DNA of 62,975 nt from Pseudonocardiaceae bacterium (GTDB lineage Bacteria; Actinomycetota; Actinomycetes; Mycobacteriales; Pseudonocardiaceae), in assembly GCA_036279835.1 (NCBI GenBank), contig DASUII010000297.1:1-62975 (forward strand). The letters are read 5' to 3'. The number at the start of each line of letters is the position of its first letter. Within the stretch, counting starts at the first letter, position 1. Below the pieces are notes generated by a model that did no database searches, had not been told where the DNA came from, and saw nothing but the letters and a program-made list of their open reading frames with translations. Made by a program: the position numbers and the translations under genes. This document shows positions 17,336-24,908 of this stretch, piece after piece.

Positions 17336-17920
17336 GTGCGTGCTGTGAGGGATGGCGCGACAGGTGGGACCGAACTCCGCAGCGCTACGTTCCGCGTCGT
17401 GATGGGTTTCTTTCCTACCGGTGTCGCGCTGCTCACGTGTGGATCCGGCGGTGATACCGACGTCATCACCGCAAACGCGGTTACTTCGATCTCGTTGGAA
17501 CCTCCGCTAGTCCTCGTCGCGGTAACCTCCCGGGGTCGGATTCGGCGCAGTATCGAGAGGCAGAGGAGTTTCGCGGTCAACTTCCTGGCGGAGGATCAGG
17601 GCGGGTTGGCTAGTTTGTTCAGCAAATGGAACCGTCCCAGGGGCGTCGCGGCCATTAAGATCCTCGGTGGCGAGGTAAGTCGCACTGGTGATGCCCTTCT
17701 CGCGAGGGCGGTCGCAGGCCTGGAGTGCACGTTGGTGCGGAAGTGCCCGGGCGGCGACCACATCATGTTTATTGGGCAGGTGATCGCTACCTACACCGAC
17801 GACGAGATAGAACGGCGGCCGCTGCTGTTCCACCGAGGTAGGTATTCGACTGTCGCCTCGTGCGGCTGCGGCATACCCGTTACCGGCTTAGTGCAGAGCC
17901 TGCCAGAGCGTGTCGACTAG
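17336..17920 (+). CDS. NAD(P)H:flavin oxidoreductase (flavin reductase family)
   Basis: 194 aa. FRVVMGFFPTGVALLT...ANAVTSISLEPPLVLVAV...FAVNFLAEDQ is typical of the flavin reductase domain. Confidence 0.85.
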   Translation: MRAVRDGATGGTELRSATFRVVMGFFPTGVALLTCGSGGDTDVITANAVTSISLEPPLVLVAVTSRGRIRRSIERQRSFAVNFLAEDQGGLASLFSKWNRPRGVAAIKILGGEVSRTGDALLARAVAGLECTLVRKCPGGDHIMFIGQVIATYTDDEIERRPLLFHRGRYSTVASCGCGIPVTGLVQSLPERVD

Positions 17921-17952
17921 GGATTCATCTGACTGGGATCGGAGACACGGCC

Positions 17953-18945
17953 ATGCAAATCAAGGTGCTAGGACCACTCGAAGCATACGAGAACGGCATG
18001 TCGATCACGCCGATCGCTCGCAAGCCGCGCCAGGTTCTCTCGTTGCTGGCCTTACAGACAGGCTCGGTGGTGAGCGTGCCGTGCCTCATCGAGGAGCTTT
18101 GGGGTGCGAAACCGCCGGTGAGCGCGCTCACCACGCTGCAGACTTACATCCTTCAGGTCCGGCGCGGAATAGCCGCCGCACTAGGCTCGAAAAACAACGA
18201 TCCTGCGAAGGATGTGCTCCGGACCTGCTACGGCGGCTACCTGCTCGACGTGGGCCCCGGTGACGTTGACATGTACGTCTACGACCGGCTCGCCGACAGT
18301 GGCAAGAAGGCCTTCGAACACTCCGACCTTGAGCTCGCCTCGGCGCTGTTGCGCCAGGCTCTGGATTTGTGGCGCGGGGACGTGCTCGTGGACGTGCATG
18401 CGGGGCTGCGGATCGGAATGGAGGTGACCCGGCTCGAGGAGAGCAGGCTCGGCGTGCTGGAGGCGCGAATCATGACCGATCTGCGCCTGGGCAGGCACGG
18501 GAACCTGCTCGCGGAGCTTTCGGTGCTCACCGCCCGCTACCCGATGCACGAAAATCTGTGCGGCCACTTCATGCTCGCCCTGCACCGCGGTGGCCGGACG
18601 AGCCAGGCGCTGGAGGTTTTCACCAAGCTACGCAAGACCCTCGTCAACGAGCTCGGTGTCGAACCATCGGGCCGCCTGCAGCAGTTGCAGCAGGCGATCC
18701 TGCGCTCGGACCCGGGACTCGACGCGATCCGGCTGCCGATACCGGCATCGACCGATACCGCCGACTCACGGGAGGCTACGTGTCCACCTACGTGTGGGGC
18801 TATCTGGAGGAATATCACCACGAGCGTGCCGACATCCTCGACGCCGTGGAGACCGTCTTCGAGTCCGGCCAGCTGGTGCTGGGAGAGAGCGTCCGTTGCT
18901 TCGAGGAGGAGTTCGCCGCCTACCACGGCATGCCGCACTGCGTAG
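17953..18945 (+). CDS. SARP family transcriptional activator (DnrI/ActII-ORF4 type)
   Basis: [15 protein letters not shown]...[12 protein letters not shown].. (OmpR-like winged helix) is followed by a BTAD region (..[10 protein letters not shown].., ..[38 protein letters not shown]). The last ~55 codons overlap the next gene. There is a TTA codon at 18052-18054. Confidence 0.9.
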
Positions 18946-19892
18946 GTGTCGACAATGGCACGAATGCCATCGCGCTGGGCCTGCAGGCGCTGGGGATCGG
19001 CCCCGGCGACGAGGTGATCACCGTATCGAATACGGCCGCGCCGACCGTGGTGGCGATCGACGCCGTCGGCGCGACACCGGTCTTCGTAGACGTGCGACCC
19101 GAGGACTATTTGATGGATACCGGCCAGGTGCGGGCCGCTATCACGGCCCGAACCCGATGTCTGTTGCCGGTGCACCTCTACGGACAGTGCGTGGCCATGG
19201 GCCCGCTGCTCGACCTCGCCGCTGAGCACTGCCTGCTGATGCTCGAGGACTGCGCGCAGGCACACGGCGCATGCCATCACGGGCGGATCGCCGGGACAAT
19301 GGGCGACGCGGGGGCGTTCTCCTTCTACCCGACGAAAGTTCTCGGCGGCTACGGTGACGGTGGCGCCACGATCAGCTCCGACGAGCAAGTCGACCGCAAC
19401 CTGCGCCGCCTGCGGTACTACGGCATGGAGACGCGGTACTACGTGGTCCAGACTCCCGGGCACAACAGCCGGATCGATGAGCTACACGCCGAGATCCTGC
19501 GCCGCAAGCTTCGAAGGCTTGACAACTACATCGAGGCGCGGCGGGCAGTCGCGCAACGCTACCGGGACGGTCTCGCCGACCTCCCGGATCTCGTCCTGCC
19601 GGCGATCGCCGAGGGCAACGATCACGTCTATTACCTATATGTGGTTCGACACCCCGAACGGGACCGGATCGTCGAGGCGCTGACGGCCTACGACATCCAT
19701 CTCAACGTCAGCTACCGCTGGCCGGTGCACACCATGTCCGGGTTCACACACTTGGGGTACGCCCACGGTTCGCTGCCGGTCACCGAGCGGCTGGCCGACG
19801 AGATCTTCTCCCTGCCGATGTACCCGTCTCTGCAGACCGACGTCCAGGACAAGGTGATCGATGCGCTGCGGGAGGTCATCGGCAGATGTTAG
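18780..19892 (+). CDS. PLP-dependent TDP-3-keto-6-deoxyhexose 3-aminotransferase (DegT/DnrJ/EryC1 family, DnmJ-like)
   Basis: A GTG at 18780 follows [41 protein letters not shown] is present, and the catalytic Lys is retained in [16 protein letters not shown], so this is an aminotransferase rather than a 3,4-dehydratase. Confidence 0.88.
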
Positions 19893-22901: not shown

Positions 22902-23681
22902 GTGCGGATTGTCGACATCTCCAGCGCTGTGGATGCCTCGGCGTGGGAGCCGGACCCTGTCGTGCATGAAATCCTTTCCCCGCGTGCGGCGGCCGAACAC
23001 ATGCGTGACGAGATGCGCGAGCACTTCGGGCTCGAGTTCGACCCCACCGATCTGCCCGAGTCGGAGTTCCTGTCGTTGGACCGGCTCGCGTTGACCAGCC
23101 ACACCGGGACGCATGTGGACGCCCCTTCGCACTACGGCTCGCGAGCGCACTACGGAGACGGCCGGCCGCGCAACATCGACGAGATGCCACTGGAGTGGTT
23201 CTTCGGCCCAGGTGTGCTGCTCGATCTCACCGGGTGCACGACGTCGGTCGCCGGCGCCGCCGTCATCGAGGAGGAGATCACCCGAATCGGATACCCGCCT
23301 GAGGCGGGGGACATCGTCCTACTCCACACCGGTGCGTCCGCGTGGGCGGGCACCCAACGCTACTTCACGGACTTCGTCGGCCTCGACGGTCCGGCCGTTG
23401 ACCTGCTTCTCGACCTGGGAGTCCGAGTGATCGGGACCGACGCGTTCAGCCTGGACGCGCCGTTCGGCGACATTATTTCCCGTTATCGCAAGACCGGCGA
23501 TTCTTCGGTGCTCTGGCCTGCACACGTAGCCGGGCGCACCCGCGAGTACTGCCAGGTCGAGCGACTCGGCAATCTCGAAGCCCTACCGGTTCCGTACGGC
23601 TTCCGAGTCGCATGCTTTCCGGTAAAGATAGCCGGCGCAGGAGCGGGCTGGACCCGCGCAGTGGCCATTTTCGACGAGTAA
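22902..23681 (+). CDS. Metal-dependent 'putative cyclase' family protein (DpsY/AknW/MtmY-like polyketide cyclase)
   Basis: 259 aa. SHTGTHVDAPSHYG is a motif of the PF04199-type cyclase/kynurenine formamidase fold. It lies directly upstream of the C-methyltransferase, as I recall for dpsY-dnrX. Confidence 0.78.
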   Translation: MRIVDISSAVDASAWEPDPVVHEILSPRAAAEHMRDEMREHFGLEFDPTDLPESEFLSLDRLALTSHTGTHVDAPSHYGSRAHYGDGRPRNIDEMPLEWFFGPGVLLDLTGCTTSVAGAAVIEEEITRIGYPPEAGDIVLLHTGASAWAGTQRYFTDFVGLDGPAVDLLLDLGVRVIGTDAFSLDAPFGDIISRYRKTGDSSVLWPAHVAGRTREYCQVERLGNLEALPVPYGFRVACFPVKIAGAGAGWTRAVAIFDE

Positions 23682-23696
23682 GCCACCGGAGGAACC

Positions 23697-24908
23697 ATGT
23701 GTCGCATTTGCGGTGGTGACGTTCGCGAGTTCTTCGATTTCGGCCGTCAACCGCTGTCCGATACCTTCCCCACCGAGGAAGAGCTCGAGCACGAGTTCTT
23801 CTTCCGGCTGGCGGTAGGGGTGTGCGAGTCGTGCACCATGGCTCAGCTGCTCGAAGAGGTCCCCAGGGACCTCATGTTTCACCACACCTACCCGTACCGT
23901 TCGGCTAGCTCGGCCAGGATGCGTGAGCATTTCGCGCGAACCGCGCACACCCTGCTTGACACGGAGCTGACCGGGAAGAACTCGTTCTGCGTGGAAATCG
24001 GCTCCAACGACGGGATCATGCTGAACGTGATCAAGAACGCCGGTGTGCGTCATCTCGGTGTCGAGCCGTCCGGGGATGTCGCCGATCTCGCCAGGGCCGC
24101 CGGAGTACGGGTTCGGACCGATTTCTTCGAGGAGCTCACGGCCATCGAGATCGCCGCGGCCGAAGGTCCGGCCGCCGTGATCTATGCCGCCAACACGATC
24201 TGTCACATCCCTTACCTGGACTCGGTTTTCCGTGGGGTGGATGCCCTGCTCACGCCATGCGGCGTCTTCGTCTTTGAGGACCCGTACCTTGGTGACATCG
24301 TGGAGCGGAACACCTTCGATCAGATCTACGACGAGCATTTCTATCTGTTTTCGGCCCGCTCGGTGCGGGCCGCCGCCCGGCGATTCGGATTCGAGCTGGT
24401 CGATGTCGAGCGACTGCCGGTGCACGGTGGTGAGGTCCGTTACACCATTGCTCGCTCCGGTGCGCGGCGGCCGAGTCCGGCGGTTGACGCCCTGATTACC
24501 GAAGAGGTCGACCGAGCACTCGGCGAGTTCGGAACACTCGAAAAGCTCGGTGGCGAGGTCGAACGGGTGTGCGCGGACCTCGTCGCGCTGTTGCGTAACC
24601 TCCGCGAACAGGGTTGCCGGGTCGCCGGTTACGGGGCCACTGCGAAGAGCGCGACGGTCACGAACTACGCTGGCATCGATGCCGAGCTGGTGCCCTGCGT
24701 GTACGATACGACGCCAGCCAAGATCGGCCGCCTGATGCCCGGCTCGCACATCCCGATTCGTCCGGCCACCGAATTCGCCCAGCCCTACCCGGACTACGCG
24801 TTACTTTTCGCCTGGAACCATGCCGAAGAAATTTTGGCTAGGGAAAAGGAATTCACGGCTCAGGGTGGTCGCTGGATCGTCTACGTGCCGGAAGTCCGGA
24901 TTCTCTGA
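23697..24908 (+). CDS. NDP-hexose 3-C-methyltransferase (TylCIII/EvaC/DnrX-like)
   Basis: An N-terminal four-Cys zinc ribbon (MCRICGG ... CESC) is followed by a class I SAM fold (FCVEIGSNDG) and a C-terminal domain typical of sugar C-methyltransferases. Confidence 0.88.
   Translation: MCRICGGDVREFFDFGRQPLSDTFPTEEELEHEFFFRLAVGVCESCTMAQLLEEVPRDLMFHHTYPYRSASSARMREHFARTAHTLLDTELTGKNSFCVEIGSNDGIMLNVIKNAGVRHLGVEPSGDVADLARAAGVRVRTDFFEELTAIEIAAAEGPAAVIYAANTICHIPYLDSVFRGVDALLTPCGVFVFEDPYLGDIVERNTFDQIYDEHFYLFSARSVRAAARRFGFELVDVERLPVHGGEVRYTIARSGARRPSPAVDALITEEVDRALGEFGTLEKLGGEVERVCADLVALLRNLREQGCRVAGYGATAKSATVTNYAGIDAELVPCVYDTTPAKIGRLMPGSHIPIRPATEFAQPYPDYALLFAWNHAEEILAREKEFTAQGGRWIVYVPEVRIL

Follow-up and report, generated by a model that had tools for sequence, protein, structure and literature searches.

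Daunorubicin and doxorubicin pathways make TDP-L-daunosamine with one enzyme set and, with DnrX, also TDP-L-epi-vancosamine, the aminotransferase, epimerase and reductase of the pathway also serving daunosamine synthesis. In the branched-sugar part of the pathway, DnmZ reportedly oxidises epi-vancosamine to a nitroso sugar, from which a retro oxime-aldol reaction leads to the precursor of the baumycin acetal. According to its title, a paper by Al-Mestarihi et al. (JACS 2013; as cited in PMC6165268 and PMC5481743) assigns DnmZ a part in the C-C cleavage that leads to baumycins. Most daunorubicin pathways are reported to end mainly in baumycins (PMC5750220). Here we describe a 62,975-nucleotide stretch of DNA (the window; contig DASUII010000297.1, G+C ~65%) from an uncultured Pseudonocardiaceae bacterium, a soil actinomycete, for which genes were called by open reading frame (ORF) analysis and Pfam profile searches across the window. 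Judged by its gene content, the window as a whole is a daunorubicin/doxorubicin-type anthracycline cluster (~17.93-57.4 kb), because it carries orthologues of DoxA and DnrK. We focus on the interval 17336-24908, which encodes an amino-sugar nitrososynthase and, at its left end, a flavin reductase, and we consider it likely that this interval is the deoxyaminosugar part of a doxorubicin/baumycin-type cluster and that the reductase is a genome-specific accessory. Clusters of this kind are already well known, and the locus brings no new enzyme class or mechanism; it places a complete doxorubicin-type set in an uncultured Pseudonocardiaceae lineage. The genes of the interval, its immediate neighbours and the outlying sugar genes are as follows (ACAD, acyl-CoA dehydrogenase).

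16283-17329, + strand: StrR/NovG-type regulator with a ParB-like N terminus and a helix-turn-helix (HTH) domain (HTH matches; PF27534 NovG_helical on the identical gene of a second assembly, L001)
17336-17920, + strand: NAD(P)H:flavin reductase of the HpaC/SgcE6/PheA2 class (PF01613 Flavin_Reduct, 119 bits)
17953-18945, + strand: SARP pathway activator in the DnrI position (BTAD, 140 bits, and Trans_reg_C)
18780-19892, + strand, predicted start: DegT-family TDP-sugar 3-aminotransferase in the DnmJ position (PF01041, 356 bits)
19906-20877, - strand: TDP-4-ketohexose 4-ketoreductase in the DnmV position, 323 amino acids (PF01370, NAD-epimerase fold, 150 bits)
20874-21509, - strand: dTDP-sugar 3,5-epimerase in the DnmU position (PF00908, 170 bits)
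21496-22716, - strand: amino-sugar nitrososynthase, a DnmZ orthologue and ACAD-fold two-component flavin N-oxygenase (four ACAD domain matches)
22902-23681, + strand: DpsY-like polyketide cyclase (PF04199, 102 bits)
23697-24908, + strand: zinc-ribbon TDP-3-amino-4-ketohexose 3-C-methyltransferase in the DnrX position (PF08421, PF08484 and PF13489)
24924-26480, - strand: BBE/FAD-linked oxidase (PF01565 and PF08031)
32766-33770, - strand: DnmM-like TDP-glucose 4,6-dehydratase (PF16363, 258 bits)
51329-52200, - strand, start approximate: DnmL-like glucose-1-phosphate thymidylyltransferase (PF00483, 104 bits)
52153-53637, - strand: DnmT-like NDP-hexose 2,3-dehydratase (PF03559, 522 bits)

A genome scan with a nitrososynthase profile yielded 80 loci, the nearest of which belong to two Pseudonocardiaceae metagenome-assembled genomes (MAGs; L005 and L006, with 91% and 89% protein identity, respectively), followed by those of Streptomyces ruber, several Nonomuraea (rhodomycinica, roseoviolacea and others) and further Streptomyces. 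Twelve loci (L005-L016) are collinear with the window across BBE oxidase/C-methyltransferase/cyclase/nitrososynthase/epimerase/ketoreductase/aminotransferase/SARP, at 64-92% protein identity (L015, on a short contig, lacks the BBE and cyclase genes). We take this block to match drrD(dnrW)-dnrX-dpsY-dnmZ-dnmU-dnmV-dnmJ-dnrI of Streptomyces peucetius. By homology and gene order, the block is the standard dnmJ-dnmV-dnmU-dnmZ/dpsY-dnrX set of a daunorubicin/baumycin cluster, and not the special sugar N-oxidation unit that an earlier reading of the sequence alone (hereafter the sequence-only reading) had proposed. All genes and coordinates given in that reading, including those of the 4,6- and 2,3-dehydratases, are present and intact in the Pfam searches. 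A second, independent Logan assembly of the sample (L001) has identical gene order and calls, the reductase-SARP junction included. As a sugar sub-cluster, the interval does hold the sugar genes, but it also holds the SARP regulator and the DpsY-like cyclase, which is an aglycone enzyme and not a sugar enzyme.

The individual sugar genes agree with this assignment. The aminotransferase best matches DesV (274 bits) and QdtB (265 bits), has homologues of 77-82% identity in the syntenic loci and, as the sequence-only reading had it, keeps the pyridoxal-phosphate-binding lysine (FSFYPTK aligned to FSFYPGK of DesV); its start is most likely the GTG at 18780, behind a gggagg ribosome-binding site (RBS), so that the gene begins inside the SARP ORF, near the 3' end of the latter. 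Identities in the syntenic loci are 64-68% for the 4-ketoreductase, 70-78% for the 3,5-epimerase (126 bits to the RmlC model, under the cut-off of the model) and 75-78% for the DpsY-like cyclase. The C-methyltransferase is, by its scores, of the nitrosugar-pathway type (TcaB9, 589 bits; KijD1, 587 bits; versus 280 bits for the mycarose C-methyltransferase). The BBE oxidase adjoins it in 11 of the 12 DnmZ-type loci (the L015 contig is too short) with 65-68% identity outside the MAGs, and we take it to be possibly the drrD/dnrW equivalent. The gene drrD/dnrW is mentioned in PMC11676270.

For the nitrososynthase, the Pfam matches (PF02771, PF02770 and PF00441/PF08028) cover the three-domain acyl-CoA dehydrogenase fold, and among solved structures it scores 571 bits to DnmZ (4zxv), 476 bits to ORF36 (3mxl) and 455 bits to KijD3 (3m9v), with identities of 68.2%, 60.6% and 56.0%, respectively, whereas ACAD-fold proteins other than nitrososynthases reach at most 89 bits, roughly six times lower. 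NCBIfam holds no nitrososynthase hidden Markov model (HMM), and its matches, all far under their cut-offs, are uninformative. The phylogeny that the sequence-only reading had suggested as a check (a neighbour-joining tree of 123 family members) places the protein in a 16-member clade with DnmZ, with ORF36 and KijD3 outside. The position of Glu376 of medium-chain acyl-CoA dehydrogenase (MCAD) is occupied by His382; this was read from a Smith-Waterman local alignment with gapless extension, used because BLASTP gave no alignment of the window protein with the MCAD query (a short human C-terminal fragment, exact against PDB chains), was anchored at the GG..P..L.RD motif and concerns the MCAD-type Glu position only. 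Across the 123 members, the equivalent column contains H, Q or N and never E (His in the DnmZ clade, Gln in ORF36/RubN8). The scores, the clade and the missing MCAD-type catalytic Glu rule out a true acyl-CoA dehydrogenase; neither of the two findings that would have spoken against the sequence-only reading (affinity to fatty-acyl-CoA dehydrogenases and a retained glutamate base) was made, and its nitrososynthase-like assignment stands. The gene clusters with those of a sugar 3-aminotransferase and a nitrosugar-type 3-C-methyltransferase, and the expected substrate, given this TcaB9/KijD1-type methyltransferase and both dehydratases, would be a 3-amino-3-C-methyl-2,3,6-trideoxyhexose, as had been proposed. 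No two-component-type oxygenase other than the nitrososynthase was found in the window.

The reductase presents a different picture. It matches the HsaB, HpaC and StyB models, each under the cut-off, and its best PDB matches are 4r82/4hx6 (SgcE6), 5cho (a flavin reductase) and 1rz0 (PheA2). The gene begins 7 nt past the stop of the StrR/NovG-type regulator and ends 33 nt ahead of the SARP ATG, and because these gaps are so short and the regulator, reductase, SARP and aminotransferase genes all lie on the + strand, the four are probably co-transcribed; in a promoter and terminator consensus scan around the reductase, sites were no commoner than in shuffled sequence. It is not part of the nitrososynthase operon, from which it is separated by 3.6 kb and four genes, on the opposite strand. 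We searched the 80 nitrososynthase loci for reductases within 10 kb of the nitrososynthase gene, using tblastn and a custom PF01613-like HMM on six-frame ORFs, and found one in none of the 12 syntenic DnmZ-type clusters (that is, not even in the two relatives with ~90% nucleotide identity) and in only two loci overall, those of Actinomadura kijaniata (L062) and Actinomadura sp. 3N407 (L024). The closest relatives of the reductase itself (46-65% identity) adjoin HpaB-type or other ACAD-fold oxygenases in unrelated clusters. Since the nitrososynthase system works without a clustered reductase in the relatives, the dedicated two-component system of the sequence-only reading is unsupported: the gene sits between two conserved blocks, is absent from the homologues of both and lies just outside the point at which homology breaks off. 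From this distribution, we suggest that the reductase, which may supply reduced flavin to the nitrososynthase, is an accessory found in this genome only, rather than a conserved or required partner.

The breakpoint itself is sharp. Nucleotide homology to the ~90% identical relatives starts at 17929/17938, just past the reductase stop and ~25 nt ahead of the SARP ATG; upstream of it, the DNA is unrelated in all three genomes (in one of the MAGs, a STAND/WD40 gene is found at this place), and between the two MAGs only ~22 nt upstream of the SARP ATG are in common. Recombination seems to have recurred at the left cluster border, with a different promoter context for the activator in each genome, and the reductase would probably have reached its place by a rearrangement with its breakpoint ~25 nt upstream of the SARP start. 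The border stretch shared by the three genomes spans 17929-17953 in the window, 14767-14791 in L005 and 13066-13090 in L006, and the clusters are 88-92% identical. The SARP shows 73% identity to its Streptomyces and Nonomuraea homologues over residues 1-261/270 only. Its ORF of 330 amino acids carries an extra ~60 amino acids, which extend for ~166 nt, in another frame, into the 5' part of the aminotransferase gene, and the extension is also found in both Pseudonocardiaceae MAGs and in L014, a Streptomyces locus.

On the other side of the reductase, homologues of the StrR/NovG-type regulator (63-71% identity; L092 and L094) adjoin the same amidohydrolase/DUF6545/ImmA-like module as is present in the left flank of the window. 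A conserved regulator-reductase pair was looked for among the three closest homologues of the regulator for which genomic context is available, and no reductase was found downstream of any of them; in L092 and L094 other genes follow. By these neighbourhoods, the regulator probably belongs to the left-flank module and not to the anthracycline cluster; the sequence-only reading had placed the reductase between two cluster regulators, and of these the SARP is indeed that of the cluster whereas the StrR/NovG-type regulator goes with the left flank elsewhere. The flank (9396-15609) comprises the amidohydrolase and a duplicated module of HTH_3, ImmA-like HEXXH and DUF6545 membrane proteins (~10682-12894 and 13880-15609), and the module recurs together with a StrR/NovG-like regulator in a metagenome contig (L092, 274-3212).

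The genes that type the cluster, together with those for glycosylation, lie farther to the right.

36384-39127, - strand: glycosyltransferase and P450-like helper, a DnrS/DnrQ-like pair (EryCIII-like domains and a weak p450 match)
39921-41108, - strand: carminomycin 4-O-methyltransferase orthologue, DnrK (564 bits to 5eeg/1tw2 versus 372 bits to RdmB)
50018-51328, - strand: second glycosyltransferase, in the DnrH position (EryCIII-like N and C domains)
56070-57419, + strand: DoxA orthologue, a P450 (636 bits to 9o35/9s7f; next P450, 137 bits)

At the domain level, the type II polyketide synthase (PKS) consists of ketosynthase (KS) alpha and KS-beta, with KSIII and an acyltransferase as propionate-starter genes; aglycone tailoring is represented by an ABM oxygenase, a ketoreductase, an aromatase/cyclase, a SnoaL-type cyclase, a methyltransferase, an esterase, an aromatic hydroxylase and a short-chain dehydrogenase/reductase (SDR), DnrG/C/D/E/F-like genes are present in the window, and resistance is represented by a DrrABC-like set (DrrAB-like and UvrA-like genes). 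The acyl carrier protein of the PKS (54225-54497, + strand, LGYDSL motif), between a SnoaL_4-like gene and the gene of a DnrU-like SDR, is easily missed in lists of long ORFs. Also inside the cluster, 30138-32752 holds a WYL-domain/HTH regulator and a carboxyltransferase (acyl-CoA carboxylase beta subunit) that presumably feeds the malonyl-CoA supply; doxorubicin-type clusters carry other regulators at the place of the WYL regulator. Immediately beyond the DoxA orthologue, mobile-element genes bound the cluster on the right. The first is an IS6-like transposase remnant that is divided between two frames (57682-58304); a tyrosine integrase gene (58669-59973) and a gene with an HNH domain (60371-61468) follow.

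By homology to the dnm/dnr system, the thymidylyltransferase and the 4,6- and 2,3-dehydratases would provide TDP-3,4-diketo-2,6-dideoxyglucose, to which the DnmJ-like aminotransferase would add the 3-amino group. If no C-methylation takes place, the epimerase and 4-ketoreductase would then give TDP-L-daunosamine (the main sugar), which the DnrS/DnrQ-like pair may attach; with the DnrX/TcaB9-type 3-C-methyltransferase, the same enzymes would give TDP-L-epi-vancosamine. With free reduced flavin and O2, the DnmZ orthologue could oxidise the epi-vancosamine amine to the hydroxylamine and on to the nitroso sugar, which, with its free 4-OH uncapped, would most likely undergo retro oxime-aldol C3-C4 cleavage, and the second glycosyltransferase, a candidate DnrH equivalent by its position on the S. 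peucetius map, would attach the cleavage product as a baumycin-like acetal. The presence of a second glycosyltransferase in this position is compatible with the baumycin route, and the enzyme is a candidate for the attachment of an oxidised or cleaved branched sugar. We suggest that the end product is most likely a baumycin-type cleaved sugar rather than a stable nitro sugar, because of the DnmZ clade, the full synteny with doxorubicin-type clusters and the lack of a sugar O-methyltransferase gene in the window. Among the outcomes that the sequence-only reading had listed (a hydroxylamino, nitroso or nitro sugar, or baumycin-type cleavage), cleavage is therefore the best supported and a stable nitro sugar the less likely. 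A nitro-sugar anthracycline cluster (decilorubicin, arugomycin, cororubicin or keyicin type) was set aside on DoxA, DnrK and the DnmZ clade.

Several points weigh against our reading of the interval as a doxorubicin/baumycin-type sugar block with an accessory reductase. The limit of 10 kb around the nitrososynthase could hide reductases located elsewhere in the related clusters, and the tight spacing of the reductase to the SARP and aminotransferase genes could mean a real functional integration that goes beyond an accessory. In addition, 68% identity to DnmZ is no proof that the substrate is shared or that the nitroso intermediate meets an identical fate, the second glycosyltransferase is a DnrH orthologue by position only, and the lack of a sugar O-methyltransferase was judged from this window alone.

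Three other explanations can be envisioned for the reductase. In the first, the rearrangement joined a regulator-reductase unit to the activator/aminotransferase operon and the native SARP promoter was lost, and no daunorubicin-type cluster before this one would have had a reductase for its nitrososynthase built in, or regulation rewired in this way; if so, flux could move from daunorubicin to N-oxidised or cleaved (baumycin-type or even nitro-sugar) glycosides. We hold this to be unlikely, if worth keeping in view. In the second, which we consider improbable, the reductase is unconnected with the sugar pathway (that is, it is cargo of a regulator unit, a remnant of another cluster or a general flavin/quinone reductase) and became adjacent through insertion or rearrangement. 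The breakpoint, which falls precisely in the gap from the reductase stop to the SARP RBS, with three upstream contexts in three genomes, speaks for such a chance neighbour, as do the ties of the regulator to the amidohydrolase/DUF6545 module in L092 and L094, the mobile-element genes at the right edge (IS6-like remnant, integrase and HNH gene) and a density of reductases near nitrososynthases (2 per ~1.5 Mb) that is about what we take to be the actinomycete background. However, the regulator homologues in L092-L094 have no reductase behind them, so that no conserved regulator-unit cargo is seen, the left flank offers no alternative oxygenase partner, and the 33-nt gap is too small for a separate SARP promoter, so that the reductase is probably on one transcript with the activator. 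Least probable of all is the third explanation, a dedicated, co-evolved nitrososynthase partner in a system that makes a stable hydroxylamino, nitroso or nitro sugar (decilonitrose-like) on an anthracycline, for although the reductase is of the right class, is codirectional and tightly spaced with the SARP and aminotransferase genes, has the nitrososynthase as the sole candidate oxygenase in the window and finds a precedent at the kijanimicin locus (a PF01613 gene on the kijD3 strand, two genes ahead of kijD3), it is missing from every syntenic DnmZ-type cluster and from all but two of the 80 loci, lies outside the block common to the ~90% identical relatives and 3.6 kb from the oxygenase on the opposite strand, and has nearest relatives that serve other oxygenase families, in a cluster that is as a whole of the doxorubicin/baumycin rather than the nitrosugar-anthracycline type and has no sugar 4-O-methyltransferase with which to stabilise a nitroso sugar.

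With the doxorubicin/baumycin-type reading, the value of the locus is twofold. A complete cluster of this type with a DoxA orthologue in an uncultured lineage is a useful source in which to mine for variants of anthracycline enzymes that matter in the clinic. Furthermore, the window and its relatives amount to a natural experiment in which near-identical clusters occur with and without an adjacent reductase and with three DNA contexts upstream of the activator; comparison of such clusters could reveal whether the supply of reduced flavin limits DnmZ-type chemistry.

Several known systems lie close to the locus. The HpaB/HpaC, SgcC/SgcE6 and PheA1/PheA2 systems have a reductase of the same class as that of the window, but the pairing of reductase and oxygenase is conserved there and not in the loci homologous to the window. 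ORF36 (everninomicin) and RubN8 (rubradirin) belong to the same ACAD-fold family (61% identity to ORF36) and act on the same substrate class, yet they fall in a different clade and give stable nitro sugars on non-anthracycline scaffolds. The D-kijanose genes of kijanimicin (Actinomadura kijaniata) likewise combine a nitrososynthase (56% identity), a 3-aminotransferase and a TcaB9/KijD1-type C-methyltransferase with a nearby PF01613 reductase; however, that reductase (L062, 7340-7879) is encoded inside the sugar operon, on the kijD3 strand and two genes upstream of kijD3, an arrangement also found in Actinomadura sp. 3N407 (L024), whereas the reductase of the window lies at the cluster edge on the other strand and is only 35% identical, and kijanimicin has a spirotetronate scaffold and a sugar that keeps its nitro group. 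The S. peucetius daunorubicin/doxorubicin/baumycin cluster differs from the window in its host (a Pseudonocardiaceae here), in that the window has the StrR/NovG-type regulator and the reductase where, on the S. peucetius map, dnrN/dnrO-type regulators would be expected, and in that the window has an intact 4,6-dehydratase and a SARP ORF that is ~60 amino acids longer and overlaps the aminotransferase gene. The two clusters are alike in their DnmZ-clade nitrososynthases (68% identity), DoxA and DnrK orthologues, propionate-starter PKS, DrrABC-like resistance and two glycosyltransferases.

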